Shown here: positions 3,913 to 44,876 of the stretch, one piece after another
How positions within the stretch are numbered: the first letter of the stretch is position 1
Layout: each line of letters starts with the position of its first letter
DNA from: an uncultured Candidatus Saccharibacteria bacterium
GTDB taxonomy: Bacteria > Patescibacteriota > Dojkabacteria > J137
Assembly (NCBI GenBank): GCA_965230975.1
Contig: OZ246402.1
Location: forward strand, 800,859 to 864,858
Reading direction: 5' to 3'
DNA: 64,000 bases
The notes under the pieces: generated by a model
Told to the model about the DNA's origin: nothing
The model's input: the letters and a program-made list of their open reading frames with translations, nothing else
Database searches by the model: none
Program-made: the position numbers and the translations under genes

Positions 3913-4584
3913 GTGAATATTTTTCGACTTAGCAACTTAAACATAAAGCTAATTGCCATTTTAATGGCTTCTTTTGTATTGGGCACATCAATTTTAACTC
4001 TATTCACATCCAACTATTACTTACATGCAGACCAGTTAGAAATACTAAATGGACTTTCATTAAGTAGCAATGTTAAAAGCGATCTTCAATTGCAAACGAT
4101 CAAAGTTTTAAATATAGAATCTACAATTCAAGCAAAAGACAATAGAGGATTTGTTTTAGACCAATATTTTCAAAAATACAACTCTCCTTTATTTGGCTAT
4201 GGCAATGTTTTTGTAAAAGCATGTGACCAGTATCAAGCCCCAGAAGACTGCATAACTGTTGCTGCAATTGCTAAACACGAAACCAATTTGTGTACTTACC
4301 CTCACTCAGCAGATATGTTTAACTGTTGGGGTTTTGGAGGTGGCGGAACAAATAGAATAAAATTCTCATCATTTGAAGAATCTATTTTTAGGGTAACAAA
4401 AGTTTTGGCACAACAATATGGAAGGAAATATATGATTGACCCGGAGTTAATGGAAAAAACCTTTTGTGGAACAGAAGACCCCCTATGTGCTGGCTGGGGT
4501 GACAGAGTAAAAATAATTATGAAAGAAATTAACGATTTCTCAATTAGTTTGAATATGGGAGATTTATTTAGTTTAAGAAGATAA
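3913..4584 (+). CDS. membrane-anchored/secreted hypothetical protein, Cys-rich
   Basis: The ORF track starts at TTG 3811, which overlaps the sortase gene. GTG 3913 gives a basic N-terminus plus a TM helix, and ATG 3964 is also possible. The AIAKHETN segment only weakly resembles lysozyme-like folds. Confidence 0.5.
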   Translation: MNIFRLSNLNIKLIAILMASFVLGTSILTLFTSNYYLHADQLEILNGLSLSSNVKSDLQLQTIKVLNIESTIQAKDNRGFVLDQYFQKYNSPLFGYGNVFVKACDQYQAPEDCITVAAIAKHETNLCTYPHSADMFNCWGFGGGGTNRIKFSSFEESIFRVTKVLAQQYGRKYMIDPELMEKTFCGTEDPLCAGWGDRVKIIMKEINDFSISLNMGDLFSLRR

Positions 4585-13221: not shown

Positions 13222-13509
13222 TTAGGACTCTTTACTATTTGGAATAATAACTAGACCTAATTCTGTTGATCCATCAAATTTAACATCAAAGTCCTCTTGT
13301 GACACAGGTGTGCCTAATAGGTTTGGAGATTGGGCCATTTCTGTTTGTATACCCATTGCGGTTCTCCATCTTAAAAGAAATAAAGTTCTAATAAATTGTA
13401 TTCTTTTCTCATCAGGTAAATTCAATATATCCTGTTTATCTTGAGCACTTAAGCGTGCAAACATTCGCATTGCACTCTCGTCATTAAAAAATGAGGGGAA
13501 ATCTTCCAT
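13222..13509 (-). CDS. hypothetical protein
   Basis: 95-codon ORF between the terminator and a divergent intergenic region. No motif recognised. Confidence 0.4.
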   Translation of the reverse strand: MEDFPSFFNDESAMRMFARLSAQDKQDILNLPDEKRIQFIRTLFLLRWRTAMGIQTEMAQSPNLLGTPVSQEDFDVKFDGSTELGLVIIPNSKES

Positions 13510-13588
13510 AATTCTAAATTAAATATTATATATAATATAGCATATCAGATTTAACCCATATAACTTAAATTATTAGTAATTAGTTCTT

Positions 13589-13675
13589 AACACTACATAA
13601 ACAGTGTCAAAACAGTGCTAAATCTGGTTGATTTTAGGTCGGATTTAGCACTACTTCAGCACTGTTTATGTATCC
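13589..13675 (+). repeat. copy 1 of a ~88-nt imperfect palindromic element
   Basis: Outer arms TACATAAACAGTG / CACTGTTTATGTA and inner arms AGTGCTAAATC / GATTTAGCACT. It lies 66 nt upstream of the GNAT ATG. Confidence 0.8.
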
Positions 13676-13740
13676 ATCTAATTGTAATATTTCAAATAAG
13701 TTCATTTAACAAAATAGCTATAAATTAAATCTTTACTATC

Positions 13741-14475
13741 ATGTATAATTACTATATGGGTAAACTCTCAATAAAAATTGCATTCACAGAGGATGAATAT
13801 CTAGAATTCTACAACATTTATACAGATGCATTTAAAAATGAACCTGACGAAATTTTTAGCAAAGAAGAAGTACTCAAGTGGATAGATGAAACGGAAGACT
13901 ATGCAAATACCAAAATCTTTTTACTTTTAAAAGACAATATAACAGTTGGATTTGCAATATTGATGCATAAAGATGGAATAGGAAACATACCTTGGGCTGG
14001 AATAAAGTCCCAATATCAGGGCCATGGATTATATTCTCAATTTATTAACCTAATGATAGATACTATTTTTAATGAGTTAAACATTAATATTCTTACAAGA
14101 GAGTGTGATAACCCAGAAGTATTAGAAGGCAATGTAAAAAAGTTTGCTATAAAAAGATTGTCTATGTTTAGAGAAAAACTAAATAGTAAATTTTATAATA
14201 ACAACGAGTTTGTATATTTTAGAGAAGACCCTAAATCACCAAACGAAAGAACTTATAAGTACTTGTTTGGATTCACACTATTAAAACCTAATTCAAACTG
14301 GGAAATTACTAATAATAAAGTTAGTAAAAAAGATTTTAAGAAATTAGTTCAATATAGAATTTTCTTTGAAAGAGGTATTTTTGAAATTGAAAAACAATTA
14401 CAAAGTAACCCGGTTGTTAAAGATTTATACCAAGAGATTGATAACTTGAAAGAGGAGTATTTAACTATAGAATAA
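13741..14475 (+). CDS. GNAT-family N-acetyltransferase (putative)
   Basis: VGFAILM beta strand followed by a Q/RxxGxG/A-like motif, QYQGHGLYS. Confidence 0.5.
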   Translation: MYNYYMGKLSIKIAFTEDEYLEFYNIYTDAFKNEPDEIFSKEEVLKWIDETEDYANTKIFLLLKDNITVGFAILMHKDGIGNIPWAGIKSQYQGHGLYSQFINLMIDTIFNELNINILTRECDNPEVLEGNVKKFAIKRLSMFREKLNSKFYNNNEFVYFREDPKSPNERTYKYLFGFTLLKPNSNWEITNNKVSKKDFKKLVQYRIFFERGIFEIEKQLQSNPVVKDLYQEIDNLKEEYLTIE

Positions 14476-14476
14476 A

Positions 14477-15439
14477 TCAAAAGCTTGCTACCTTATTCTT
14501 AATTAATTCTTTTATAGATTCTAATGAATCTATATCATAAACAGAGCAAGTTAATACATCTTTATTAACCATTTTTAATTCTTTTAATTTTTGAGCAACT
14601 ACATCTGGTTTTACTAAATCTGTTTTAGTTAACAACACAACTTCTGGCTTGTTATATAAATCCAAGTCAATATTCTTAAGCTCAGCTCTAATTTTTTTGT
14701 ATTCTTCAACAACGTTTTCGTTTTCACAACTTACTAAGTGCATAACAAACTTTGCACTTCGGGTATGTTTAACAAAACTTGTACCTAAACCTTTACCTTC
14801 AAAGGTGCCTTCAATTAGTCCCGGCAAGTCCATAATGGTGATTCCGTTAAGTCTACCTAGTTGAGGGTTTAAAGTTGTAAAGGCGTAAGATGCAACTTTG
14901 CTTTGTGCGTTTGTAATCGAATTTAACAGTGAGGACTTGCCGGCGTTGGGAAACCCTATTAAAAGCACATCACTATATAGTTCTAATTCTAAATTGGCAT
15001 CTAAAACTTCACCTTCTTTTCCTTCATCAGATCTATGCAAATTTTCAATTCCTTTTGTTCTGTAAAAATGATTACCTAAACCACCAAGGCCACCCTTTAC
15101 TATTAATTCTCTTTGTCCATCTTTAGATATAGAAAATAATAAATTGCCGTGTTTATCATAAATGTTCGAGGTTAAAGGAACCTTCATTATAATATCTTTA
15201 CCGTTTTTTCCTGTAAGATTTTTGTCACCTCCTGGTTGGCCGTTTTCTGCTTTGATTGTAAAGTCTAAGTATATTGAGTTTAAATCATAAGTAATTGCAG
15301 ATCCTTCTACATAAATGGAACCACCATTGCCCCCAATTCCTCCTTCTGGGTTTCGACCTTTGTAAAAGGCAATGGCTCCGTGGCCACCTTTGCCGGCAAT
15401 AAATTTTAATCCTATTTTGTCTTTAAATTTTTTATCCAT
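14477..15439 (-). CDS. obg: GTPase Obg/CgtA (short form)
   Basis: Gly-rich Obg fold (GGHGAIAF, GGNGGSIY, GGLGGLGN), G1 GFPNAGKSS, G3 DLPGLIEG, G4 TKTD. Confidence 0.9.
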   Translation of the reverse strand: MDKKFKDKIGLKFIAGKGGHGAIAFYKGRNPEGGIGGNGGSIYVEGSAITYDLNSIYLDFTIKAENGQPGGDKNLTGKNGKDIIMKVPLTSNIYDKHGNLLFSISKDGQRELIVKGGLGGLGNHFYRTKGIENLHRSDEGKEGEVLDANLELELYSDVLLIGFPNAGKSSLLNSITNAQSKVASYAFTTLNPQLGRLNGITIMDLPGLIEGTFEGKGLGTSFVKHTRSAKFVMHLVSCENENVVEEYKKIRAELKNIDLDLYNKPEVVLLTKTDLVKPDVVAQKLKELKMVNKDVLTCSVYDIDSLESIKELIKNKVASF

Positions 15440-15649
15440 AATTAATCTTATTGAAAATATTTAGTTACCGATTGTTGTATTTCTATAGGGTGCTACTATA
15501 ACATATTTACTTAATAAGTAGGATAGCAGATTTAAACAAAAATAGTAATTCAGTTTACAGTAAACTATAAACTGTTTTAAATTAAATAAAATTATCCTTA
15601 AATTGTGTAAGTGTTAATTTTCCTAGATAATAAGTCTGTTTTTTAAACG

Positions 15650-15738
15650 GTCATTACAGAAACGGTGCTAATACAGTGCTAAAACAAAGCTAAAAACGGT
15701 CAAATTTAGCACTGTTATGACACTGTTTATGTAGTGTT
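15650..15738 (-). repeat. copy 2 of the ~88-nt palindromic element (inverted relative to copy 1)
   Basis: The reverse complement begins AACACTACATAAACAGTGTCATAACAGTGCTAAAT, and by hand alignment about four fifths of positions match copy 1. It lies ~210 nt upstream of the obg ATG. Confidence 0.8.
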
Positions 15739-15820
15739 ATGAGATACAACATTAGCTAAGTTCTTAGTTTAAGTATCAATATTTGTTTGGAGAGATAAAA
15801 CATCTCAAATATGAAGATAT

Positions 15821-15845
15821 AAAACTGCCAGCATTTCGCTGGCAG
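15821..15845 (-). terminator. rho-independent terminator downstream of the heliorhodopsin gene
   Basis: 8-bp GC-rich stem CTGCCAGC / GCTGGCAG with a 5-nt loop. On the minus strand it is followed by TTTTATAT. Confidence 0.6.
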
Positions 15846-15879
15846 TAATTTATCTTCAACAACTAGGATTTAGCAAATA

Positions 15880-16656
15880 TTATTGTGGCCTTAAAGTTCC
15901 GCTAAAGATTTGCCAAGCTAGGGCACTTTTAGCAACCAAACTTAAGATTATGTACATTCTTTCTCCAAAAATATAGCTTTTCCATGGTCCAACTTTTTTG
16001 TATTGCAAGAACATGTTTAAAGCAAATATATTAAAGAAAATGAATATAGAAGCCAAGATTGCGTATACAAAGCTTGGAATATTTGTACTTACAGATTGAA
16101 CTGCTCCGTAAAAATACATTCCAACTGCAACCCAAGGCACTATTCCTGCAAAGCAACCGAAAATGTAAGATGTCCAATTTGTTTTTTCTGTAGTTTGATT
16201 ATGAAGTTCCATCATTAAACCAAATAGGTTCATTGTTGCGTTTAAAGCAAATATTAAAATCAAGCTTGGTAAATCAAACATTCCGCACAATATTGCGATT
16301 GCTACAATCATTACGCTAGAACTTAATGCGTATTCGTACCATCTTAAATAGTTGATTTTCTTTTTTAAGTTTTTAACATACCATTCGTTTATTCCAGGCA
16401 ATATTATTAAAAAGTGAAAGAATGCAGATAAGAATAAGAATACTGCTATAAATTGACCTAGATTTAGTTTTAAAGCCTCTTGTGTCACCGGTAAAACTGT
16501 TCTTGCTTGAATATTAAAGTCTAGATATGTTGTTGTTAGTGGTATTTGAAAGTCTTTACTAACAAGCAACATCGCAATTCCTTGCACCAAGTGCAACACA
16601 AACATTACCGCATTGAATATGCGTAAGTTCTTAAATGTACGAGCTTCTTTATCCAT
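15880..16656 (-). CDS. heR: heliorhodopsin
   Basis: Seven TM helices with long collinear matches to the prototype HeR 48C12 as I recall it: RWYEYALSSSVMIV (counterion Glu), FGCFAGIVPWV, and LSLVAKSALAWQIFSGTL (retinal Lys). Conserved His residues sit in VLHLVQG and AFFHFLI. Confidence 0.9.
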   Translation of the reverse strand: MDKEARTFKNLRIFNAVMFVLHLVQGIAMLLVSKDFQIPLTTTYLDFNIQARTVLPVTQEALKLNLGQFIAVFLFLSAFFHFLIILPGINEWYVKNLKKKINYLRWYEYALSSSVMIVAIAILCGMFDLPSLILIFALNATMNLFGLMMELHNQTTEKTNWTSYIFGCFAGIVPWVAVGMYFYGAVQSVSTNIPSFVYAILASIFIFFNIFALNMFLQYKKVGPWKSYIFGERMYIILSLVAKSALAWQIFSGTLRPQ

Positions 16657-16729: not shown

Positions 16730-17305
16730 TTAACCTTCTTTATTTAATTTATATTGTTCGTAAACTAAATCTTCTTCTTTTGCAGAGAGTAGATTCATCG
16801 ATTTTAATCCAGTAATAATTTCTAAAATTCCTTTTTTGCCTATTCCTATTACAGGAAACTCATCTGTACCATGCAATAACTGGTATTTTACATAACCCAC
16901 TAAATGATATTTCTTTCTTTTTAAAACATTATGATAAATTGTAGATAGATTTAATGTGTCAATACTTACAGAAGGGTATTTCTCACTATTATTTTCACCT
17001 ATCAAGCTAATTATAATTGACTCGGTGTTTTGTATATTTACGGTTTTTAAGACTAAACCCGCTTCTAATCTATCTATATACCCTCTGTTAAACAAATTAA
17101 CTATTAGGTCTTGATATGATTCTCTAAACCCACCTGGAATATCTACAAGACCACCATTTCTAAAGTATCTTAGTCGTTTTAGTAAATCAGCAATCGTATA
17201 AATCCCTTTAGATTTTAAATGATCAATAAAATTATCTGGTAGTTCTAAAACTGCAATATCTAAATTTGTATCTTTATTTTGTAAGTAATCTGGTTGTGAA
17301 CTCAT
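16730..17305 (-). CDS. protein with two RNA polymerase alpha-CTD-like helix-hairpin-helix modules (short paralog)
   Basis: LELPDNFIDHLKSKGIYTIADLL and LNLSTIYHNVLKRKKYHLVGYV...IGIGKKGILEIITGLKSMNL follow the RpoA CTD pattern LxLSVRxxNCLKxxxIxxIGDL...NLGKKSLxEI. Confidence 0.65.
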   Translation of the reverse strand: MSSQPDYLQNKDTNLDIAVLELPDNFIDHLKSKGIYTIADLLKRLRYFRNGGLVDIPGGFRESYQDLIVNLFNRGYIDRLEAGLVLKTVNIQNTESIIISLIGENNSEKYPSVSIDTLNLSTIYHNVLKRKKYHLVGYVKYQLLHGTDEFPVIGIGKKGILEIITGLKSMNLLSAKEEDLVYEQYKLNKEG

Positions 17306-17339: not shown

Positions 17340-18251
17340 CTATACTTCTAAAGGAATATCATATTTAGCTAATATTTGGATAAACTGATCTTGAGTAATA
17401 TACCCTTTCTGAATTAATTGGCTTGCTATCTCTTTAATTGATTTTTTTGAAAATTGGTTTAAAAGTAGTGGAGTTGATATTTCAAGCAACATGAATTTAA
17501 TCTCACCAACTGTGTGGTAACCATTTATGAATAAATTAAAGTGTAAACTTGAATCTAAGGATAGCGCACCCAATGGAATTTCCGGATATTCCTCGCTTGT
17601 ATTGGCTCCTAATAACCTAATTAAATCCAATTGTCCTGCACCTCTATTTAAACACTTAATGTATACTTCGGCTTCTATTCTGCTAAATAAGTTCATTTTA
17701 TAAAGTTTAGCAATACAGTCGCTAAAATCGTAAGGTGTAGAACCATTATCTATTCTTATTCCTCGCTTGACTAAAGACTTTAGAAGGTCCATAAGTTGAC
17801 CGACAGTATTAATATTGCTTTGATTGACAAGGCTTTGTAAGTCCTCATTTAAATCTAGCACACTTACATTGAGGGCTGCTGCATCTTCAGGGGATATTGG
17901 TTGACTTAGTAAGTAGTCTTTAAAGTCTGCTACTGTTAAGGTGGCAATATCGGGCAAAGTTTGTTGTATATCTGAAAGTAGTCTTATAACTTGTGCATGC
18001 TTTGTGGTATCTACTTCACCTTCATTTGCCAATACTTGGATTTTTGCTAATGCTAATGCTTTTATTGCTGGGAATTCCGGATTGATATTTGGGTTATTTG
18101 CTACATAGTTAAGGTAGCTAGCTATTGATATATCTGTAAAGCCGGCATCTAGTAATTGTTTTATTTGTAATTCCAAAACTGTATTACTTGTTGGGGGGAT
18201 TACATCCGGATCCTGTAATCGTGTATAAACTGGGAAATGCTGAAATGCCAT
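17340..18251 (-). CDS. alpha-CTD-like double-module protein (long paralog 2)
   Basis: The C-terminal ~190 aa are collinear with ORF 16730-17305 (RIEAEVYIKCL, LLGANTSEEYPEIPL, LSLDSSLHFNLFINGYHTVGEI). I prefer the ATG at 18251 over GTG 18287 because it aligns with the N-terminus of paralog 1. Confidence 0.6.
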   Translation of the reverse strand: MAFQHFPVYTRLQDPDVIPPTSNTVLELQIKQLLDAGFTDISIASYLNYVANNPNINPEFPAIKALALAKIQVLANEGEVDTTKHAQVIRLLSDIQQTLPDIATLTVADFKDYLLSQPISPEDAAALNVSVLDLNEDLQSLVNQSNINTVGQLMDLLKSLVKRGIRIDNGSTPYDFSDCIAKLYKMNLFSRIEAEVYIKCLNRGAGQLDLIRLLGANTSEEYPEIPLGALSLDSSLHFNLFINGYHTVGEIKFMLLEISTPLLLNQFSKKSIKEIASQLIQKGYITQDQFIQILAKYDIPLEV

Positions 18252-18353
18252 ATCAAGTTGAGTAATATGTATACTCGATATTAACACCTTGTTACTAATT
18301 TAGACAATCAGTTTTGTCATATCTTTTGCGTAACAAAGGTGGATAATTATTAG

Positions 18354-19286
18354 TTAGGCCTCAATTTCAAATCTGGCATATATTTCTTTTTTGTAATCTT
18401 CCTCCGATTTCTCATCATCTTTAAAATATCCTTTAGATATTAAAGCCTCAGTTATTCCTTTTATTCCACTTACCCCTATATTCTTAACATTGAATTCAGG
18501 GCCTCCAAATAAAAGCTCGTGTTTAACTTCTCCTATAAAAATATAACTACCTCTCATTAAAGCATTATATGTTCTTCTAGGAAGATCTAATTCAGATATA
18601 TCTATAGAAGGGAAACTTTCACTATTATTAGCTCCTATCAAGTTATCTACTTGACTCTCATCAGGAAATCTTGCAATAAATCTTAAATACAAACCTGCTT
18701 CTATTCTAGATATATAATTTAATTCAAATAGTTGAACTACTAAATCTATAAAAACTGGGTTATTCATAATACGACTAGCAAACTGGTAATCTTCTCTGAT
18801 TGTTCTTAAGAGCTGTACTAAATCTGAAATATTTTGAACGTTTCTTGATTCTAAAAGTGCTCTTAATTCTCCACTAGGTCTAATCATTTCGATTGAATCT
18901 TGTAAGTTGCCTGGAATTCCTGATTGCATTGTGGATTGATATATAAAATCCAAAAAACTTTCAACTGTTAGTGCTGATAAGTCTTCTGAGTTATCGTAAG
19001 CATATTGTAAAAGTGCGTTTAATTTTAAATAGTTTGATTCTTCAATATCACCTTTCTGTACTAATTGTTTTATTCTAAGTAAAACTACAGAAGTTATTGC
19101 AGAGTAGGTGGATTTATCTATTGATTCTAAGTTTTGTAAGTATGCAAAATATAAACTTATTTGAATATCTTCAAAATCGTTTGCTAAGATTTGAGATATA
19201 AGAGCTAAAAGATTATCTGCATGAATCTTTACATTTTCTGGTAAATCTTCAGAACTTAAGTAATTGTTTAGAGCTGCAAATACCAT
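18354..19286 (-). CDS. alpha-CTD-like double-module protein (long paralog 1)
   Basis: ELDLPRRTYNALMRGSYIFIGEVKHELL...NIGVSGIKGITEALISKGY closely mirrors the RpoA CTD. An upstream degenerate module reads ELRALLESRNVQNISDLVQLL. Confidence 0.65.
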   Translation of the reverse strand: MVFAALNNYLSSEDLPENVKIHADNLLALISQILANDFEDIQISLYFAYLQNLESIDKSTYSAITSVVLLRIKQLVQKGDIEESNYLKLNALLQYAYDNSEDLSALTVESFLDFIYQSTMQSGIPGNLQDSIEMIRPSGELRALLESRNVQNISDLVQLLRTIREDYQFASRIMNNPVFIDLVVQLFELNYISRIEAGLYLRFIARFPDESQVDNLIGANNSESFPSIDISELDLPRRTYNALMRGSYIFIGEVKHELLFGGPEFNVKNIGVSGIKGITEALISKGYFKDDEKSEEDYKKEIYARFEIEA

Positions 19287-35182: not shown

Positions 35183-35312
35183 AGAAAGAGTGAAAACTAT
35201 ATCTGTATTTATTTATATTATATTTCAGATATATAAAATACCTAGTTAATTTCAATTCAATTAATAGTTGAGAGTAACATTTAAATTAAAACAACTCTTA
35301 AATAGTGAAAAA

Positions 35313-38300
35313 ATGCTATCAGTTAAGCATTCTTTTCTAACTTCATATAAAAATAATAAAAATAGATTCCACGTTATTATTGGTTTGGTTTTAGTTTTAA
35401 GCATTGCAGGATTAGTTTACGCAGCTACATCTACTAATAATATTGCTACCTCTTCTACAAATACAGCTACCACTGTTTCTACATTAAGAAGGGTAGTAAG
35501 AACAAGCGATGGAACATTACATGCATTTGTACAACTAGGTACAGAGACAATGACCTGTGGTGGAACACCAACAAATGGATTACTCTGGACTTATTCAACA
35601 GATAACGGGACAAATTGGACATGTGGTGGTCAGGTTTCTAACAATGTTAGTATTCTATTTCACGCTTCTGCCGTAGTAGATTCCTCAGATAATATTTATA
35701 TAGTATATTCACCTACAAATAGCGGAGCAAACAGCACTTACGATGCATATTATAGAAAACTAACAAAAGGGTCTGGGTCTACATGGACTTTAGAAAACGC
35801 ACAAACAGTATTAGATGCATCTGCATCTACTGGATTTAACTACGCAACCATAGAAATTGAAGGGACCGATAGACTCTGGGTTGCAGCAAGAAGGTTTGAT
35901 GGCACCAACTATCAAATATCAACTTACTATTCAGACGGGCTCACTACAAACCCTACCTGGGAAACATCTGAAAATGTATTAAGTGTAGCCGGTAATAGCG
36001 CCTCTTACCACATACCTGCAATGTTTAGATTCGGAAATAAAATAGGTATTGTTTATAACTCGCAACTGCCTACTGCAGTTATGAGATGGAGGTTTAGAGA
36101 AGATGGAGAATCTTTAACAAAATGGGCTTCTGAGACAATTATTAACACATTAACAGCTACTGGGCCAACATTTTCTGTAATTTCTGATAGTAATGCAAAT
36201 GCATATTTTGCTTTAAGTAGTACTACTAATGTTTTCTTTAACTATTGGAATGGTAGCGTTTGGTCTCAAAACGCAATAGTTAGTACGACTGCGCTTTCAA
36301 ACAGCTATGTATCTTTAACTACAAACGGTTCTAGCGTCAAAGTAATATATGGTGAATCTACAAATTTAGCTGCTGGTATTACAGGTCTAGGTATTTATAA
36401 ACTATCTTACAAAAATGGATATTTACCATTCTCCTCATCTGAATTTGATGTTACTGCTAGCCCTGTGGTTAGCTACCAAACCACATTTGATAAATATTGG
36501 AGTTACAATGGCACAACTTATACAAACGATACAACAGATGTTGCAAACGCAACTAGTGCAGATACACAAATGACATCTGGGATTGGGAGTATCGCATACT
36601 TTGGAAAACTTGAAAAATTTGACTCTATAGCTTGGGATATTTCTACAAGTGGAGTAACTGGTACTATAGTTTGGGAGTACTGGAACGGGAGTTCATGGAC
36701 AGCCTTAACTTTAAGAAACTCTTCTAGTCCTAACTTTACAGCAGATGGTTGGATAAACTTTGTAGACCCTGCAAACTGGGCAACAACTCAAGTTAATGCA
36801 GAAGGCACACCTTATTATTATGTTAGAGCTAGAACTAGTGTTGCATTTACAACTCAACCTGTAGGTGTTCAAATACTACCAATAACAGGCGTTTTTGGTG
36901 CTAACTTTATACAAAACAGTGTTAGTGGTAGTAGCTATGGTATTTGGACAGAAAACACTGCAAGCAGATTTGTTATTAAACAAGGATCTCTTAGCTATCC
37001 AGCAGTTACTGTAAATAATGCAACAAACACAAATGCAGTAAATAACTTGATAGGATACTCAACACTTGCTACAGCTACTCACCCAAGTACAATGAAAAAT
37101 ATATTACAAACATCTGACGGTACATTTCATGCCTTTATACAAGCTGGGAATAATGTTGCCTGTAATGACACGACTTATAATGGAGGGCTAGTATGGACAT
37201 ATTCTACAGATGAAGGAGTAAATTGGGATTGTGGTGCAGAACTTATGAGCGAAATTGTTAATGTATCTTATGCTTCTGCAGTAAAAGATAGTTCTGATAA
37301 TATTTATGTAGTTTATTCTACTTTAAATAATGCAGGTGGAGTTACAAATGACACCTACTATACAAAGCTAACAAAAGGAGTTGGATCAACCTGGAGCGTA
37401 GGCACTCCAGACTTAGTTTTAGATGCAAGTGGAACAACAGCATATACATACTCAACAGTTGAGATAGAAAATAATACAAGATTATGGCTTGCCACAAGGT
37501 ACTTTGACGGGGTTTATTATCAAATCAATACTTATTATTCATCAGACCTTTCGGGTGCTCCAAACTGGAGTGTTTCGAAAGCCCCATTAACAGCTCTTAC
37601 CGCAACTAGCACATATCTGTACCCTGCAATCGTTAGGTTTGGAAGTAATATTGGTGTAGCTTATAATGCTCAAACTAATAATCAAAGGTGGCGAGTTAGA
37701 TCTGATTCTGACCCGTTGAGCTCTTGGGGTACTGAAAACATTGTAAGCACAGAAGCAGTAGCTAGCCCAAGATTCTCAATTATATCTGATGGAAGTGATA
37801 ATGTTTACTATGGGTCCTTGGTAACATGTTCAATTTATACAACCTTTTGGAACGGTAGAACATGGGCTCCAACAACTACAGTAATAAACAACAACTGTAC
37901 TCAGGTAGCATCTGGCACTTACTTTAGCTTGTCTACTGATGGTACAAATTTAAGGTTATTTTATGGAGAGCCATTAAGTACTAGTACTGGAATTCCCCAA
38001 CATAGACTAGTTTATAGAACAGGTGTACCTCCATATAGTGCAAACAGCTTTGATTTAACTGCAACACAGGTAAATACAATGCATTCAACATTTACTAAGT
38101 ATTGGAGTTATGTTTCAAGTGTTTACCTAAACGACACTACAGATGCCGCAAGTGTGACAAGCGCAGATACTCAAATGCTAACAAACGCAGGAGATATTGC
38201 ATTTTTTGGATCCAGTTCAAAATTTGATACTGTTGCATGGGATGTTTCAACATTAGGAACTGTTGGATCCGTAATTTGGGAATATTGGAATGGCAGTGCT

Positions 38301-41300
38301 TGGGTAGAACTAACAGATTTTACATCAGTATCTAACCCATCTTTTTACAATGATGGATATATTAACTTTGTTACGCCAGTAAATTGGGCTACAACACAAG
38401 TTAATGCAGAAGGCACACCTTACTATTATGTTAGGGCTAGAGTAACAAGGTCATTTAGTGTAGCACCAGTAGGCATTCAGTTTACAACAATGCCATTAGT
38501 TTCTTGGGCAACTGCACTCCCGAATACAAATGCTAATAAAGTTGGTGCTATGTGGACTGAAAACTCAGTTTCATCTATGCCTATAAAATTTCAAAATATT
38601 AGCTTGGGTAGCAATTACACTAATTATAACGCTACGCAAACAGATGTTATTCCAACTTTAGGTTATTCAGCTAATGTCACTTCGCTGGGGCCAACAACTA
38701 TGGAAAGCTATGTTAAAACTTCAGATGGAACATACCACTCATTTGTGCAAGCTGGAAACAAGCAATTTTGTAACGATGCATCATCTACAGTAAACAATGT
38801 TGGTTTAATGTGGGTTTATTCTACCAATGGGTCGGATTGGAATTGTGGAGGTCAATTATCCGGTGATGTTACTAATTTTATGTATGCTTCCGCTACAACC
38901 GACTCTGCAGGAAACATTTATGTAGTTTATTCAGTAACCGCAAATGGAGCAAACATCGCATATAGCACTTATTATAGAAAACTAACAAAAGGGGTTGGTG
39001 CAACATGGACAATAGGAAATGCAAGTCAGGTTCTAAATGCTTCTGCAGGTGGTATTGCTTATTCATACTCTGTTATTAAAGCAGAATCAGATTCAAGATT
39101 GTGGTTAGCAACGCGTTACTTTGATGGTACAAACTATCAAATATCTGCTTACTATACTGATACTTTAGTTGATGATCCTACATGGAACCTTTCAACAATG
39201 AGTCTAAGTGTTGCGACTCCAAGCACAACCGATTTCTTTCCATCAATTGTAAAGTTTGGAAACAATATTGGAATAATTTATGCATCCCAATTCCCTGCAT
39301 CTTATCAAATGTGGAGATACAGAAGTAATTCTCAAGACCCTACTGTTTGGTCATCTCAAATGGTAGTTAATACAGAAAACTTATCTGTACCTGCTTATTC
39401 CACAGTGTCTGATAATGCAGGAAATGTTTATACAGTTTCAGTTAATGGTGCTAATGTTGTATTTAACTATTGGAATGGTAACGTTTGGTCACCCTCTGTA
39501 AACTTATCAACAACCGCCTCTACTGCTTATGCAGGTATTATTACAGATGGTTACAACGTTTGGGTTAACTATTTAGATACAACTGGGCTTATCTCATCTG
39601 GACTTGGATTAAGAAAATTTAGCTACAGAAAAGGAATACCTCCTTACACAGCTACAGAGTGGGAGGCTGCTACAAATTTGGTGACTAATCATGGATTTTT
39701 TGATAAATACTGGAGTTACTTTAGCTCTGTTTACTTAAATGACACAACCGATGTTACTTCTGTTGCAACAGCAGATACTCAAATGCTAAGAAATATAGGA
39801 GATATTGCATATTTTGGGAAATTAGAAAAATTTGATGCAGTATCTTGGGTTTTAAGCACAGCAGGTGTTGGGGGGAATGTTGTTTGGGAATACTATAATG
39901 GGAGTGTTTGGGCACCAATAGAGGATTTTGAGCATAACTTGAATCCTAATTTTATTGGTGCAACAACTGGAATTATATCTTTCAGTCCTGCAAGTGATTG
40001 GCAAACGACCACGGTTAACAGCGAACCCACACCTTATTACTATGTTAGAGCAAGGGTAATTGCAAATTACTCAACAACCCCTGTTGCATCACAAATTGTT
40101 ACAATTCCAAACTTAAATAGCTCTGCATTGCTACCTACTTTAGATGGAAACAATATGTCAGGGCTTTGGACAGAAAACTCGGTAGCTCCTATTCGAATAA
40201 GAAAATACGATATTACATTATCTACAGAAACACCTAACACAGCATCTGCATCTGATTTAATGCCTACCTTAAACTCGGCAACTTGGTATTCTTCAACAAA
40301 CCTAACTAATCAATCATCTACTCAAAGAAGTATTGTAAAAACATCTGATGGCACTATCCATTCATTTGTTTACACTGCTAACTCGCCAGCTTGTGGTGGC
40401 AACTCAACAAGCCAGGCAAATTCAGGTGGGTTAGTTTGGATGACCTCAAGTGATGAAGGTGTAACTTGGGATTGTAAATCTACTTTGTGGTCTGACCCGA
40501 CAATGGGGTACTACGCATCTGCAACAGTAGACAGCAACGACAATATTTATGTTGTTTATTCTCAAGCTGCAAATGGTGGGAGTGTTAATTACGATATTTA
40601 TTATAGAATGATTACAAAAACTGGACCTGGGACTTGGAGCATGGAACCTCAACAAATACTACTTGATTCAATTACTGCTAATACTGGGTACACTTATGCA
40701 ACAATAGAGGTAGAAGGTTCTAATAGACTTTGGGTAGCATTTAGAAATTATAATAATCCAAACTATCAAGTCTCTGTATATTATTCTAGCGCACTAACTT
40801 CTGAACCAGTTTGGACACTTTCAAGCTTAGCATTAGAAAGTGCAGGCACATCTACAAGTTACCATTATCCAACCATTGTACGTTATGGAAGTAATATAGG
40901 AGTTATTTATAGCAATGAAATTGGAGGTGTTTCTACCAGATGGAGATCTAGAGCCGACACAGATGGTTTAACAACATGGGGAACAGAAGCAACAATTATG
41001 GCATCTGCTTCAACAGGGCCATTATTTTCTGCAGTTGGTAGTGATGCTGGTGAAATCTATTTAAGTGTTGGCTCTGCTGCAACTGTTTACTTTACATCAT
41101 GGAATGGAAGTTCTTGGTCAAGTAGAGCAACATTATCTTCAACTGCTATTACAAATGGATTTACAAATGTAAGTATGGTTGGAACAACTGCATATGTTTA
41201 CTATACCAATGCAAGTGGTTTGAGTGCCGGATTACCAGGTAATAGAAAATTAGTATATAAAAGAGGTGTTGCCCCATACTTAGATGCAAACTTTGATGTA

Positions 41301-44300
41301 TCAGAAACAAGTATTGTTTCTTACCACTCACTATTTGATAAAGTTTGGAGTTATGTATCTTCAGTTTACGCAAACGAAACTACAGATGCTTCAAATACAA
41401 CAAGTGCAGATACTCAAATGGTAAGCCAAATAGGGGATATTATATATTTAGGTAAAACTTCTAAATTTGATAATATCTCTTGGGACTTATCTACATTGGG
41501 TACAAATGGAATAATAAGATGGGAGTATTATAATGGTGCTTCTTGGAAAGCAATAAATAAATATTTAGGTGTATTAACTCCATCATTCACAGGAGATGGT
41601 GCAATTTCATTTGTTCCGGCTCAAGACTGGGCACAAACAACAATTAACGGAGAGGGAACATCTTATTATTACGTAAGAGGGGTAGTAACAAGAGCATTTA
41701 GCGTTGTACCAATTGGAGTTCAGTTTGCAAGTATTCCATTACTGTCTCAATTTACAAGCATTGCTAAAGCTAACAACATTTACTACTCATGGACAGAAAA
41801 CTCTGCATCTAACTACAGAGTTAGATTTTCAGCATACATATTTAATGTTGCTCCAAACACACCAACCTCATTGGGCGCTAGTGCAGTAGTAGATGGATCT
41901 CCAACAAAAAACAATCAACCCGAATTTATATTTACAACAAGTGATCTTAACTTAGGAGATACTTCAACATATACTATTCAAATTGATAACGATAGCGATT
42001 TTTCATCTCCAGTAGTAGATTACACTTCTGCATTTACATTAAATGGAGTTAGAGGCTTTGCAGTAGGGCAAGCAGTTGGTAGTGGAATTTACACTACAGG
42101 TTCGCAAGGGCAAACATTGACAGACGGAGATTATTACTGGAGAGTTAAAGCAAGTGACTTAGCAGGTTTAGAATCCGGGTTTGCAGTAGCAAACAGCGGA
42201 AGTGTTGCGTTTAAAATAGATACTGCAAACCCGGCAACAAATGCAAGCAGTATTTTAATGTTAAAAACCGCTGGTGGACCTGGAGTTAACTCTAATGGTT
42301 GGACAAATAACGCATCTCCTTATTTTTCTTGGACACCTGGTGTAGATAACGTAGGTGGTTCTGGAATTTTTGGTTATTGTGTTTATTTAGGAACAGATTC
42401 TAATGGTAATCCAGAAACTAGCAAAGGCTTGTTAGGAACATCACCTGCAACTTTGGTAGATTCAACTTGTCAATTTATAACTACAACTACATCAATTGAT
42501 TTTACCAACGCTAACTTAAAAGGTGGAACATGGCTTACAACATCTTCTAGCCCATATTATATAAACATTAAAGCTATAGATATTGTTGGTAATATATATA
42601 CAACTTCAAGTGCGCAATTTCAGTTTAGGTTTGATAACGTTGCACCAACTAACGTAGCTTTCATAAGCACCGCTGGTGGAACATTTAATAATGTAGCAGA
42701 TATGAGCTTTTCGTGGCCAACAGCAGGTTTAAACACATCATCAGATGCAACATCTGGAGTATTGGGTTGGCAATATGCAATTAATATAACAAGTGGTAGT
42801 TGGCAAGGCACAACAGATAGTACAGAACTAGACGAGAGATATATACCAACAAGTGATAGCAATTACAGCTTAACAAATGTTCAAGATGCAGGTTCTATTG
42901 TGACTGGTAGCAATACAATTTACTTTAGAACAATTGACCAGGCGGGGAATTATTCATCTGAGGGCACAGTTAGAACAGGTGTATTGCAGTTTGGTGGAGC
43001 TGCACCAATGTTCCCACCACTTTCTCAAGTAACAGTAACACCATCCGTGGGAGTATCAAATAATTACGAATTATCTTGGCCAGAAGCAATGTCTGGATCT
43101 GGTGGAGATATTTCAAATTATTACTATATGATAAATATAACGCCACCAACGGTTTTAAGTACTATAACAACAAACCCTGCAACATTTATAAACAACAACT
43201 TAAGTTTAGGAGTTACTGCAAGATCTTTACCAAACGTAAATAGAGGAACGAATACCGTATATGTTGTAGCAGTAGACGAAGATGGACATTATTCACCATC
43301 TAATTATATTACCGGAACATTTGAATTGAATTCAACAGAGCCGGACAATCCAACACAACTTACAGCATCAGATGCATCTATAAAATCTGAAAACAGATGG
43401 ATGGTTACATTAACATGGATTAAACCAGCATACGAAGGTGCAGGAAACTTAACATACTTGGTACATAGATCTTTAGATGGAGTAAGCTTTAGCTTGGTAG
43501 GTACAACTACAAGTTTGTCTTATGTAGATAACCCAGATGAAAGTAGACTATATTATTACAAAGTTTATGCAAAAGATGGAGCTAACCAAACATCGTCCGG
43601 TACAAATGCTGTTTCTGAAACGCCAACAGGTCGGTGGACAGTACCTCCTACACTAGACAATGAGCCAGAAGTTACAAATATTACTACTAAGAAAGCAAAA
43701 ATATCTTGGACAACATCAAGAAAAGCAGATTCTAAAGTAGCTTATGGTACAGAAAGTGGAGTTTACTTCCCGGTTGAACCTAGTACATCTGATTTAACCC
43801 CGGCACACGAAATAAATTTAAATGGTTTACAACCAAGTACTCAATACTATTATATTGCAAGATGGACAGACGAAGATGGTAATACAGGTTCGTCAACAGA
43901 ATATAGCTTTGTAACACAACCTGCCCCAAGTGTTAAAGATGTAGTTGCAAGTAACGTTGGTTTAACATCTGCTATATTAAGATACACAACCTTAGGTGCA
44001 AGCAAAGTAAGGATATTTTATGGAACAACAACATCTTTTGGAGGTTTGAAAGAGGTTTCTACTTCTACTAGCGAAACAGTTCAAACTACAGAAATAACAG
44101 GATTGTTAGATGGTACAAAATACTATTATAGAATAGATACTTTAGATGAAGAATCAGCTCAATACGAAGGAACAATTTTAGACTTTACAACACTACCTAG
44201 ACCAAAAATTAATAATGTTAGAGTACAGCAAGTTAGAAATACCGCACAGTCAACTGTTTTAATAAGCTGGCAAACAAATACGGAAGTATCTTCTATAGTT

Positions 44301-44876
44301 ACATACTATCCGGAAAATCAACCAGGACTTTCTACAGATGAAGTAAATGTCACCTTAACAAAAGGGGATCACAGTATGATAATTAGAGGTTTGCTACCTC
44401 AAACAAATTACAATATTATAGTTAAGGGAAGAGACAGAATGGGAAACGAAGCAGTATCTGATGTTCAAAGATTAACAACTGCAACAGATACTAGACCGCC
44501 GGTATTAAGCAACATTAAAATTGAAGGCGCAATTTCAAAGTTATCAAGTAGTTCTGATAATACTCAAGTTGCTCAAATAGTGGTTAGTTGGAATACCGAT
44601 GAGCCAGCTACATCTCAAGTTGAGTTTGGAGAAGGCACAGGTACAACTTATTCTCAAAGAACACAAGAAGATACTAATTTAACAGTAAATCATTTGGTGG
44701 TAATAACAGGTCTTACACCTTCAAAGGTTTACCACTTAAGAATACTAGCTAAAGATAAAGCAGAGAATTTAGGTAGATCTGTAGATACAGTTACAATTAC
44801 GCCAAAAGGAACGGATAATGCATTGGATTTGGTTTTATCTAGTTTGCAACAAACCTTTGGATTTTTAAATAATTAA
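35313..44876 (+). CDS. giant surface protein: signal anchor, four ~536-aa BNR/Asp-box-containing tandem repeats, C-terminal Ig/Fn3-like domain series
   Basis: I prefer the ATG at 35313 over TTG 35268. The repeat landmark TSDGT starts at 35502, 37110, 38718 and 40341. Each repeat has an Asp-box SxDxGxxW (YSTDNGTNW and variants). Four clear Fn3-like units fall after ~43620. Confidence 0.85.
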   Translation: MLSVKHSFLTSYKNNKNRFHVIIGLVLVLSIAGLVYAATSTNNIATSSTNTATTVSTLRRVVRTSDGTLHAFVQLGTETMTCGGTPTNGLLWTYSTDNGTNWTCGGQVSNNVSILFHASAVVDSSDNIYIVYSPTNSGANSTYDAYYRKLTKGSGSTWTLENAQTVLDASASTGFNYATIEIEGTDRLWVAARRFDGTNYQISTYYSDGLTTNPTWETSENVLSVAGNSASYHIPAMFRFGNKIGIVYNSQLPTAVMRWRFREDGESLTKWASETIINTLTATGPTFSVISDSNANAYFALSSTTNVFFNYWNGSVWSQNAIVSTTALSNSYVSLTTNGSSVKVIYGESTNLAAGITGLGIYKLSYKNGYLPFSSSEFDVTASPVVSYQTTFDKYWSYNGTTYTNDTTDVANATSADTQMTSGIGSIAYFGKLEKFDSIAWDISTSGVTGTIVWEYWNGSSWTALTLRNSSSPNFTADGWINFVDPANWATTQVNAEGTPYYYVRARTSVAFTTQPVGVQILPITGVFGANFIQNSVSGSSYGIWTENTASRFVIKQGSLSYPAVTVNNATNTNAVNNLIGYSTLATATHPSTMKNILQTSDGTFHAFIQAGNNVACNDTTYNGGLVWTYSTDEGVNWDCGAELMSEIVNVSYASAVKDSSDNIYVVYSTLNNAGGVTNDTYYTKLTKGVGSTWSVGTPDLVLDASGTTAYTYSTVEIENNTRLWLATRYFDGVYYQINTYYSSDLSGAPNWSVSKAPLTALTATSTYLYPAIVRFGSNIGVAYNAQTNNQRWRVRSDSDPLSSWGTENIVSTEAVASPRFSIISDGSDNVYYGSLVTCSIYTTFWNGRTWAPTTTVINNNCTQVASGTYFSLSTDGTNLRLFYGEPLSTSTGIPQHRLVYRTGVPPYSANSFDLTATQVNTMHSTFTKYWSYVSSVYLNDTTDAASVTSADTQMLTNAGDIAFFGSSSKFDTVAWDVSTLGTVGSVIWEYWNGSAWVELTDFTSVSNPSFYNDGYINFVTPVNWATTQVNAEGTPYYYVRARVTRSFSVAPVGIQFTTMPLVSWATALPNTNANKVGAMWTENSVSSMPIKFQNISLGSNYTNYNATQTDVIPTLGYSANVTSLGPTTMESYVKTSDGTYHSFVQAGNKQFCNDASSTVNNVGLMWVYSTNGSDWNCGGQLSGDVTNFMYASATTDSAGNIYVVYSVTANGANIAYSTYYRKLTKGVGATWTIGNASQVLNASAGGIAYSYSVIKAESDSRLWLATRYFDGTNYQISAYYTDTLVDDPTWNLSTMSLSVATPSTTDFFPSIVKFGNNIGIIYASQFPASYQMWRYRSNSQDPTVWSSQMVVNTENLSVPAYSTVSDNAGNVYTVSVNGANVVFNYWNGNVWSPSVNLSTTASTAYAGIITDGYNVWVNYLDTTGLISSGLGLRKFSYRKGIPPYTATEWEAATNLVTNHGFFDKYWSYFSSVYLNDTTDVTSVATADTQMLRNIGDIAYFGKLEKFDAVSWVLSTAGVGGNVVWEYYNGSVWAPIEDFEHNLNPNFIGATTGIISFSPASDWQTTTVNSEPTPYYYVRARVIANYSTTPVASQIVTIPNLNSSALLPTLDGNNMSGLWTENSVAPIRIRKYDITLSTETPNTASASDLMPTLNSATWYSSTNLTNQSSTQRSIVKTSDGTIHSFVYTANSPACGGNSTSQANSGGLVWMTSSDEGVTWDCKSTLWSDPTMGYYASATVDSNDNIYVVYSQAANGGSVNYDIYYRMITKTGPGTWSMEPQQILLDSITANTGYTYATIEVEGSNRLWVAFRNYNNPNYQVSVYYSSALTSEPVWTLSSLALESAGTSTSYHYPTIVRYGSNIGVIYSNEIGGVSTRWRSRADTDGLTTWGTEATIMASASTGPLFSAVGSDAGEIYLSVGSAATVYFTSWNGSSWSSRATLSSTAITNGFTNVSMVGTTAYVYYTNASGLSAGLPGNRKLVYKRGVAPYLDANFDVSETSIVSYHSLFDKVWSYVSSVYANETTDASNTTSADTQMVSQIGDIIYLGKTSKFDNISWDLSTLGTNGIIRWEYYNGASWKAINKYLGVLTPSFTGDGAISFVPAQDWAQTTINGEGTSYYYVRGVVTRAFSVVPIGVQFASIPLLSQFTSIAKANNIYYSWTENSASNYRVRFSAYIFNVAPNTPTSLGASAVVDGSPTKNNQPEFIFTTSDLNLGDTSTYTIQIDNDSDFSSPVVDYTSAFTLNGVRGFAVGQAVGSGIYTTGSQGQTLTDGDYYWRVKASDLAGLESGFAVANSGSVAFKIDTANPATNASSILMLKTAGGPGVNSNGWTNNASPYFSWTPGVDNVGGSGIFGYCVYLGTDSNGNPETSKGLLGTSPATLVDSTCQFITTTTSIDFTNANLKGGTWLTTSSSPYYINIKAIDIVGNIYTTSSAQFQFRFDNVAPTNVAFISTAGGTFNNVADMSFSWPTAGLNTSSDATSGVLGWQYAINITSGSWQGTTDSTELDERYIPTSDSNYSLTNVQDAGSIVTGSNTIYFRTIDQAGNYSSEGTVRTGVLQFGGAAPMFPPLSQVTVTPSVGVSNNYELSWPEAMSGSGGDISNYYYMINITPPTVLSTITTNPATFINNNLSLGVTARSLPNVNRGTNTVYVVAVDEDGHYSPSNYITGTFELNSTEPDNPTQLTASDASIKSENRWMVTLTWIKPAYEGAGNLTYLVHRSLDGVSFSLVGTTTSLSYVDNPDESRLYYYKVYAKDGANQTSSGTNAVSETPTGRWTVPPTLDNEPEVTNITTKKAKISWTTSRKADSKVAYGTESGVYFPVEPSTSDLTPAHEINLNGLQPSTQYYYIARWTDEDGNTGSSTEYSFVTQPAPSVKDVVASNVGLTSAILRYTTLGASKVRIFYGTTTSFGGLKEVSTSTSETVQTTEITGLLDGTKYYYRIDTLDEESAQYEGTILDFTTLPRPKINNVRVQQVRNTAQSTVLISWQTNTEVSSIVTYYPENQPGLSTDEVNVTLTKGDHSMIIRGLLPQTNYNIIVKGRDRMGNEAVSDVQRLTTATDTRPPVLSNIKIEGAISKLSSSSDNTQVAQIVVSWNTDEPATSQVEFGEGTGTTYSQRTQEDTNLTVNHLVVITGLTPSKVYHLRILAKDKAENLGRSVDTVTITPKGTDNALDLVLSSLQQTFGFLNN

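Follow-up and report, generated by a model that had tools for sequence, protein, structure and literature searches.

Among the bacterial MITEs and intergenic palindromic repeats are the Correia elements of Neisseria, the pneumococcal RUP and the enterobacterial ERIC/IRU. The element analyzed here shares with these systems a length in the range of ~80-130 bp, long imperfect inverted repeats that give a hairpin on either strand, an AT-rich intergenic location near promoters, a non-coding sequence and a patchy presence among relatives; its possible TA flanks are a likeness to IS630/Tc1-type elements. It differs from Correia, RUP and ERIC in that two copies were seen, at one locus, in that no matching IS or transposase is known, in that homology continues past one end, and in showing no similarity to anything in the collections searched.

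Arrays of short units bound by a protein are a second point of comparison: the 11-bp iterons of the parC region of plasmid R1 are bound by ParR, and heptad arrays are bound by the omega protein. The units of the present element are likewise short, spaced by about one helical turn, arranged in direct and inverted orientation and located beside promoters. However, no partner protein was found, only 2+2 units are clear, and the sole related genome that carries the element has not conserved the inner ones. The CIRCE element, operator of HrcA upstream of chaperone genes, has as its consensus the 9-bp inverted repeat TTAGCACTC-N9-GAGTGCTAA, and the inner-unit 8-mer of the present element (AGTGCTAA/TTAGCACT) is identical to the core of the CIRCE half-site. 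Here, however, the half-sites are everted, the gap is 23 nt rather than 9, and the flanking genes do not code for chaperones; CIRCE/HrcA was rejected on this geometry and gene context, and the window contains no match to CIRCE with up to 3 mismatches. NrdR and LexA boxes, suggested by ACAC-N10-GTGT and ACAG/CTGT, were rejected since neither spacing nor order fits. Integron attC was also rejected: neither RYYYAAC/GTTRRRY core sites nor an integrase could be found. REP/REPIN sequences occur in many copies per genome together with a RAYT (Y1 transposase) gene; in the window, the scanned ORFs contain no Y1 transposase domain and there are no further copies.

The 64-kb window, i.e. the whole stretch of DNA that was analyzed, belongs to a small genome of the Patescibacteria (candidate phyla radiation), probably of the Dojkabacteria. 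In it an earlier note had described a nested palindrome of ~88 nt in two copies, here named e1 and e2, which match by hand alignment at about four fifths of positions and are oriented alike with respect to the gene that follows each of them. All this was confirmed: e1 (plus strand) and e2 (minus strand) align without gaps over the whole element at ~80% identity, with a global score of z=19 against shuffled sequences. The copies and their arms are the following:

13589 to 13675, plus strand: e1, palindromic-repeat copy, palindrome core 13594-13672
13601 to 13622, plus strand: e1 left arm, two tandem 11-bp units, ACAGTGTCAAA + ACAGTGCTAAA
13645 to 13666, minus strand: e1 right arm, two tandem 11-bp units, ACAGTGCTGAA + GTAGTGCTAAA, minus-strand reading
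15650 to 15738, minus strand: e2, palindromic-repeat copy, core 15655-15733, inverted relative to e1
15705 to 15726, minus strand: e2 left arm, units ACAGTGTCATA + ACAGTGCTAAA
15662 to 15683, plus strand: e2 right arm, units ACGGTGCTAAT + ACAGTGCTAAA, plus-strand reading

No other inverted repeat in the window is as long as these two copies. Their inverted-repeat arms are 31-32 nt long and 78-84% complementary, which bounds a short non-coding element at both ends. There are two units per arm, phased at 11 bp and reading roughly ACAGTG(C/T)TAAA, and their geometry is the same in e1 and e2, free of indels (GTG at 16 and 27, CAC at 61 and 72). The phased pattern AAACNGTG-N7-AGTG gave four matches in the window, all of them in the four arms, against 1.0 expected. 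Four ACAGTG(C/T) half-sites in a 2+2 arrangement had been proposed; the arrangement is right, and three of the four in each copy fit the sequence. Similarly, the outer arm pair TACATAAACAGTG/CACTGTTTATGTA is exact in e1 and not in e2, whose right arm reads CACCGTTTCTGTA, and the inner pair CAGTGCTAAA/TTTAGCACTG is exact in e2 and not in e1. That the window holds no other copy, as the earlier note had it, agrees with an nhmmer profile search, which detected no third one; no additional unit sites above chance were found in the window either. That only two copies occur in 64 kb, both of them in one stretch of 2.2 kb, is a point against a MITE.

Divergence between e1 and e2 is highly uneven. Matches amount to 5/5 in the left flank (AACAC), 28/29 in the left arm, 12/21 in the centre and 23/29 in the right arm, so that left arm and flank together differ at 1/34 positions and the centre at 9/21. 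This unevenness, a point against a MITE, also fits constraint on a binding site or a gene-conversion tract. The 5-nt extension AACAC, common to e1 and e2, lies outside the palindrome; homology past the palindrome is confined to this left side, over 5 nt and perhaps 13 nt (10/13). Clean TIR-to-TIR transposition should not carry such left-flank homology (5-13 nt).

The genes and predicted signals next to the two copies are listed below; promoters were assigned from conservation.

13222 to 13509, minus strand: 95-aa ORF, clade-specific, transcribed away from e1
13744 to 13749: GNAT -10 box TATAAT, 6 nt before the ATG at 13756
13756 to 14475, plus strand: GNAT-like gene, 239 aa, first in-frame ATG at 13741
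14477 to 15439, minus strand: obg, with GTP1/OBG and MMR_HSR1 domains
15480 to 15504, minus strand: obg-proximal motif ATGTTATAGTAGCACCCTATAGAAA, conserved, likely obg promoter, ~145 nt downstream of e2
15824 to 15846, minus strand: heliorhodopsin gene, intrinsic terminator, beyond e2 as seen from obg

GNAT and obg are convergent, as described before, with stop codons 1 nt apart, and the spacing of 210 nt between e2 and the start codon of obg was also given correctly. The start of GNAT is most likely 13756, because the resulting length of 239 aa matches homologues and public gene calls; so measured, e1 precedes the GNAT ATG by 80 nt and not by 66 nt. A -10 box is located 6 nt before the GNAT ATG in the window and in the related genome L049 (TATAAT) and in L057 (CATAAT), implying a leaderless mRNA, and in L055 only TAATAT, ~9 nt away, was found. 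From the end of e1 to this box there are 68 nt. Between e2 and obg lie the conserved motif ATGTTATAGTnnnACCCTATAAT and an AT-rich terminator-like hairpin. Both e1 and e2 thus lie upstream of the predicted core promoters. Neither element was reported by a scan for intrinsic terminators; the genes on the two sides of e1 are divergent, and the heliorhodopsin gene ends in a terminator of its own.

Related genomes were found to contain one further member of the family. A diverged homologue of e1 is present in L049 upstream of the orthologue of the 95-aa ORF, adjoining the 3' end of obg; the only conserved position of the element is upstream of the 95-aa ORF and not of GNAT. When e1 was compared with the L049 copy, the outer 13+13 nt matched at 22/26 positions (z=11.2), whereas the interior (z=1.8) was no better kept than the flanking intergenic DNA (z=1.9). 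What is kept between lineages is only the outer 13-nt arms (consensus TACAKAAACNGTG, each TA-flanked); in the L049 copy the inner units are not conserved and the left arm is off the 11-bp phase, its GTG cores being 9 nt apart. If this copy is orthologous, its termini have been kept in place, which would point to local selection rather than to the decay of a dead MITE. TA is found at both ends of all three family members (e1, e2 and the L049 copy), a self-complementary dinucleotide that is very common at 30% GC and so is no proof of a target-site duplication.

The distance to the L049 copy is about equal for e1 (z=6.9) and e2 (z=5.5), and e1 and e2 are far closer to each other (z=19), which fits a duplication after the lineage split. 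Presence of both copies is polymorphic among relatives. The element e1 occurs in the window and in L049; it is absent in L056 and in the orthologous 98-bp 100aa-ORF/GNAT spacer of L055, which is too diverged to serve as a clean empty site. As to e2, it has no homologue upstream of obg in any of six related genomes, examined on seven contigs with Obg identities of 59-85% (L049, L057, L058, L059/L060, L061 and L062). At the equivalent place L057 has a palindrome with 11-bp repeats, which was rejected as a homologue of e2 on account of its low similarity (z<=1.5). Within the species, e1 and e2 are both present in L001 and L063, and e1 is present in L052, where the contig ends before e2; across these independent samples the two copies are thus fixed. 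The three known members all lie in one syntenic neighbourhood of 2.5 kb, unlike scattered mobile elements.

Of the three readings offered earlier (a shared operator, a structured 5'-leader RNA and a MITE-like insertion), the last fits best. We consider it the leading explanation, with a probability of about 45%, that e1 and e2 belong to a low-copy, lineage-restricted MITE-like palindromic repeat whose ends are recognized by a protein. This reading is suggested by the TIR-like anatomy, with the longest inverted repeats of the window and TA at all ends; by the conservation of the ends while the interior drifts, as seen between e1 and the L049 copy; by the patchy presence of e1 and e2 among relatives; and by the closeness of e1 to e2 when compared with the L049 copy, the fixation of the copies in independent samples and the lack of an Rfam match. 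The element would then span ~80-88 bp, with 13-bp terminal inverted repeats that start with TA and a second repeat unit in each arm, 11 bp further inward. It would act at the DNA level through a protein that reads the sequence of the arms, the simplest candidate being a transposase provided in trans, and the hairpin that can be drawn would be a by-product of the inverted repeats. The copy e1 would be old, since the ancestor shared with L049 would already have carried it upstream of the 95-aa ORF, and e2 would be a later, lineage-specific copy that a hop or a duplication, local in either case, may have placed in the space separating the obg promoter from the heliorhodopsin terminator. From this evidence we infer that the repeat is mobile, that a protein acts on it in trans and that it plays no regulatory part specific to a gene.

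The alternative that survives best, though we regard it as doubtful, is that the copies are cis-acting arrays bound by a protein, either an upstream operator or activator site or an architectural one. A putative DNA-binding protein would occupy four, perhaps six, 11-bp-phased units, about one helical turn apart, and form a nucleoprotein complex upstream of the divergent promoters of the 95-aa ORF and GNAT and upstream of obg, coupling their expression. The spacing of the units and their identical, indel-free geometry in e1 and e2 are consistent with such an array, as is the much better preservation of the arms than of the centre between the copies (33/34 and 23/29 vs 12/21); arm variation is one-sided (see below), as expected of a recognition sequence. 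Both copies lie in promoter-upstream DNA, the L049 homologue occupies the same place upstream of the 95-aa ORF with outer arms far more conserved than its flanks, every known copy is tied to this single locus, and the unrelated 11-bp-repeat palindrome of L057 also lies upstream of obg. However, the shared GNAT/obg operator suggested before does not hold, there being no conserved element upstream of obg in the six relatives; none was found upstream of the homologues of the 95-aa ORF in L055 and L056 either, and in L049 the inner units and the phase of the left arm are lost. None of the sites overlaps an inferred -10 box, their distances upstream of these boxes being 55-240 nt; for an operator of obg, sites at the core promoter would be expected, and e2 is located ~145 nt upstream of the obg-proximal motif. 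The window, in which additional sites do not exceed chance, gives no sign of a regulon.

Nor was a candidate regulator found: no recognizable transcription factor is encoded in the window, and the neighbouring 95-aa protein has no Pfam match and belongs to a family of only four members. Its AlphaFold2 model, an all-helical N-terminal domain (pLDDT 85-92) followed by a disordered acidic tail, has no significant PDB neighbour (best Foldseek match E=3.8). A role of the 95-aa ORF as a ribbon-helix-helix autoregulator is unsupported by this all-helical model and these searches. A more specific version of the array, which seems unlikely to us, is a dedicated nucleoprotein site through which obg, the gene of an essential ribosome-assembly GTPase, is coupled to a GNAT-like enzyme and to a clade-specific protein that is small and acidic. 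A putative factor would bind its four to six units, phased at 11 bp or about one helical turn within each arm, and the recognition sequence would turn over fast between lineages, as the palindrome of L057 hints.

It is distinctly improbable that the copies are products or agents of local rearrangement rather than of transposition, either as a non-mobile palindrome duplicated in inverted orientation during reshuffling of the locus or as a recombination or fragile site. Consistent with this idea, the order of GNAT and obg is swapped between the window and L049, L057 and L050, and the elements border the swapped block on the outside; directly after its e1 copy, L049 retains the fossil of a GNAT promoter and start; the homology of e1 and e2 overruns the palindrome on one side only; and the copies are inverted and only 2 kb apart. 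However, both gene orientations are kept in the swap, which a single inversion between inverted copies cannot yield, and an e1-e2 inversion was rejected on this ground as the cause of the difference in gene order. Tandem duplication followed by reciprocal loss explains the swap without the elements, the window encodes no recombinase, and both arrangements are stable within the species.

Both copies fold into long hairpins, e1 with -36.9 kcal/mol (z=-8.0) and e2 with -25.1 kcal/mol (z=-3.8). The complementary strands fold about as well, the opposite strand of e2 reaching -32.1 kcal/mol against -25.1. Differences between the arms are one-sided and not compensatory: in the six arms position 10 reads A, A, A, G, C and A, and the compensatory changes that the earlier note proposed to look for were absent. 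The covariation term (+0.44) gives no support for conserved pairing, the L049 homologue is broken at 6/11 pairs of the inner stem, and the strain variant L052 breaks one outer pair. Rfam 15 was searched with gathering and with E-value cutoffs, and nothing relevant emerged: in the whole window only tRNAs passed the gathering threshold; at the elements there were only sub-threshold matches to miRNA precursors, with 16-28 bits against thresholds of 64-100. The arms are conserved as sequence and not as base pairs. It is highly improbable that the element is a structured RNA whose transcription runs toward GNAT and obg, be it a small RNA or, as previously proposed, a 5' leader: the stable hairpins and the equal orientation of both copies relative to the downstream gene would suit it, but the -10 box 6 nt before the GNAT ATG and the conserved obg-proximal motif place the promoters downstream of the copies, the AT-rich terminator-like hairpin separates e2 from obg, and strand preference, covariation and an Rfam family are all lacking. 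The one-sided arm differences, the broken stem of L049 and the lack of a consistent strand preference argue for recognition of sequence over pairing, as supposed for the MITE-like repeat.

Repeats and regulatory DNA of Patescibacteria have barely been described. If mobile, the element would provide an early case of a MITE family from the reduced genomes of this group and would imply an active transposase somewhere in the 1.2-Mb genome; if it is a binding site, it would offer a rare experimental handle on the control of obg transcription in a lineage that has not been cultivated. In both cases the finding is of little practical value, as it concerns one species and one diverged copy and has no link to a phenotype. 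The finding as a whole is modest and fairly ordinary.

Searches for a transposase were negative within the window: 50 of its 54 ORFs of >=90 aa contain no transposase or integrase Pfam domain, the other four, outside the Pfam scan, being located inside larger genes on the opposite strand. The absence of a transposase or integrase from the window and of relatives from the databases are points against a MITE. A literature search for the motif returned nothing relevant, and in a text search Patescibacteria and 'miniature inverted-repeat' co-occurred in only two papers, with a single mention of each, never in a title or abstract. A blastn search against phages and plasmids gave nothing below E ~0.02, only words of 20-24 nt, and a metagenome scan with Obg gave only matches of 31-32% identity. 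Comparison of strains showed the region to be a recombination mosaic with long identical tracts, uninformative on constraint.

No relatives of the element were found in 185,579 species genomes, which are species representatives and do not include the source genome, nor in IMG/VR, phages or plasmids. In IMG/VR the TIR pattern gave no match and the arm pattern gave one, on the viral contig L002. In the species genomes the degenerate arm pattern gave 46 single matches. Isolated occurrences in unrelated taxa, with no second motif nearby, account for 36 of these, as expected by chance. The remaining 10, from Bacteroidota, were judged together with contig L002 to represent an unrelated system which shares only an 11-mer with the element; these matches are perfect tandem ACAGTGCTAAA units, located beside tRNA genes or in a prophage spacer.

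Two palindromic repeat copies were recovered as the earlier note had placed them, and the sequence given there for each stands:
13589-13675, plus strand: e1, palindromic repeat copy 5' of the GNAT-like gene
15650-15738, minus strand: e2, palindromic repeat copy 5' of obg

The pair is real and lies well above chance: in inverted orientation e1 and e2 align without gaps over the whole element, with a global alignment score 19 standard deviations above that of shuffles. Identity is 5/5 in the left flank AACAC, 28/29 in the left arm, 12/21 in the centre and 23/29 in the right arm. A long hairpin is predicted for both copies (z=-8.0 for e1, z=-3.8 for e2), with folds of similar quality on the complementary strands, and the two are the longest inverted repeats of the 64-kb window. 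Their arms are built from tandem 11-bp units, approximately ACAGTG(C/T)TAAA. In e1 and e2 alike GTG falls at positions 16 and 27, and CAC at 61 and 72. Within the window the phased pattern AAACNGTG-N7-AGTG is matched only by these four arms, and an nhmmer profile search found no third copy there; the earlier note had noticed none.

The local order is LiaF-like, LiaF-like, a 95-aa ORF (-), e1, GNAT-like (+), obg (-), e2, heliorhodopsin terminator, heliorhodopsin (-). The LiaF-like products are membrane proteins, and the window (G+C 30%) also encodes a sortase and many orphan proteins; the named Obg homologues come from Candidatus Dojkabacteria or Patescibacteria. The 95-aa protein is itself an orphan with four known relatives. 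Downstream of the heliorhodopsin gene, two proteins of 191 and 310 aa (16730-17305 and 18354-19286) each contain a domain similar to the alpha C-terminal domain of RNA polymerase. The 191-aa protein and the adjoining 315-aa ORF (17340-18287) are syntenic in the related contig L049, and the 310-aa protein has no counterpart at that locus. A 3202-aa ORF (35268-44876) with fibronectin-III and purple-acid-phosphatase-N-like domains has a G+C of 37%, against about 30% elsewhere in the window.

The species was present in three independent read sets. Contigs L001 and L063 carry both e1 and e2, identical in sequence to the window; L052, which stops within obg and so is compared for e1 only, shows two substitutions in e1, one of which disrupts an outer stem pair. 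The GNAT gene segment 13669-14532 shows zero differences from strains L052 and L063, with neighbouring genes differing by 2-5%, a pattern suggestive of mosaic recombination or of a recent sweep of this segment.

In L049 (Obg 85% and GNAT 60% identical to the window) a single diverged copy was found at 4204-4283, 5' of a 92-aa homologue of the 95-aa ORF and adjoining the obg 3' end; its similarity to the window copies is significant (z=6.9 and 5.5). Between e1 and this copy the outer 13+13 nt match at 22/26 positions (z=11.2), and conservation of the interior (z=1.8) does not exceed that of flanking intergenic DNA (z=1.9). Arm changes are one-sided: the six arms read A, A, A, G, C, A at position 10 of the 13-mer. 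RNAalifold gives a covariation term of +0.44, and 6 of the 11 inner-stem pairs are broken in L049. The conserved feature is thus the arm sequence TACAKAAACNGTG and not base pairing, so that a protein recognising the DNA is a likelier basis than an RNA or a cruciform.

The reading that best fits both anatomy and evolutionary pattern is a MITE-like repeat (miniature inverted-repeat transposable element), one of the three options named in the earlier note and now the likeliest of them; it is unproven, and we give it a rough probability of 45%. It is favoured by conserved termini flanked by TA, a drifting interior, patchy presence in relatives, and a second copy that is specific to this lineage and as distant as the first from the one in L049. 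Against it stand the very low copy number, with every known member within one locus, and a shared flank that runs 5-13 nt past the left end of e1 and e2. No partner transposase was found either: the window has 54 ORFs of at least 90 aa, and a domain scan of 50 of them, the other four being nested in larger genes on the opposite strand, showed neither a transposase or integrase nor a recognisable transcription factor. Moreover, divergence between e1 and e2 is very uneven, which would fit binding-site constraint or gene conversion too.

A protein-binding cis-element is the main rival and is possible, if rather unlikely. Its strict 11-bp phasing and locus specificity support such a role, but inner units and phase are both lost in L049, and the element is not conserved 5' of obg: no homologue was found there in L049 (154-bp spacer), L058, L059/L060 (110 bp), L061 (78 bp) or L062 (88 bp). 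An operator shared by GNAT and obg, as once proposed, is therefore not supported. Nor was a candidate regulator found; the adjoining 95-aa protein gave no Pfam match, and its structure model had no significant PDB neighbour. The element is also absent from L056 and from L055, where a 100-aa ORF homologue and GNAT diverge over just 98 bp. In the close relative L057 a 107-nt imperfect palindrome (397-503) occupies the place equivalent to e2, 5' of obg. Its arms of 24 nt show 75% complementarity, and it contains two repeats of 11 bp, TGGTGCAGTAC and TGGTGCACTAC; its similarity to e1 and e2 was not significant (z<=1.5), and it was rejected as a homologue. In L058 (Obg 75% identical) positions 1-914 hold, just 5' of obg, a tRNA-His gene and a fragment resembling, by eye reading alone, a large serine recombinase, which suggests an integrated element adjoining obg.

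That the element took part in, or was born of, a local rearrangement is doubtful. The order of GNAT and obg is swapped, each gene keeping its orientation, between the window (13222-15880) and L049 (3819-6318), L057 and L050; L049 reads 92-aa ORF (-), obg (-), GNAT (+), heliorhodopsin (-). Right after its element copy, L049 carries a GNAT promoter and start-codon fossil, GGATAATTACTAATAG (~4360-4389), abutting the obg stop, so the window order is probably ancestral. For the order in L049 and L057, the best explanation is a tandem duplication and then reciprocal loss.

A structured RNA, including the 5' leader proposed earlier, is very improbable, since arm sequence rather than pairing is conserved and both copies lie upstream of the core promoters predicted from conservation. 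For GNAT, a -10 box 6 nt 5' of the ATG (13744-13758 region) reads TATAAT in the window and L049 and CATAAT in L057, a spacing that suggests a leaderless mRNA; L055 has only TAATAT, ~9 nt upstream. For obg, the partly palindromic motif ATGTTATAGTnnnACCCTATAAT, probably a promoter or control site, is conserved in the window (15480-15504, minus strand, ~145 nt downstream of e2), L049, L057 and L058, at 10 to ~83 nt from the ATG. Between it and e2 lies an AT-rich terminator-like hairpin, CAGTTTATAGTTTACTGTAAACTG (15551-15574, minus strand), holding further ACAGT/ACTGT words.

Neither of the two thresholds applied to Rfam gave a relevant match, and nothing was found in IMG/VR, phage and plasmid collections. 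Among 185,579 species genomes, whose representatives do not include the source genome, the pattern had 46 single matches: 36 were isolated, without a second motif nearby, as expected by chance, and ten came from Bacteroidota, where perfect ACAGTGCTAAA units stand in tandem beside tRNA genes or in the spacer of a prophage, which we regard as a separate system. In Bacteroidota MAGs perfect tandem AAACAGTGCTAAAACAGTGCTAAA lies 83-107 nt beyond genes for tRNA-Ser or tRNA-Ala, counted from their 3' end (L011 2990-3240; also L007, L012, L023, L026, L021, L037, L044 and L046), adjoining a conserved small ORF with the motif KIYTI(T/N)QKL...E.AK.VL; five different MAGs share the 144 nt around it without a difference. 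In the putative prophage L002 (930-1655; IMG/VR UViG 3300045988_182652), whose sequence is that of L029 (Bacteroidales UMGS884), nine CAGTRCTAA sites cluster within 725 bp of intergenic DNA; they occur in both orientations, and some of them are spaced by 11 bp. The locus has 10 matches where 2.9 would be expected. This cluster resembles an operator or an array of iterons.
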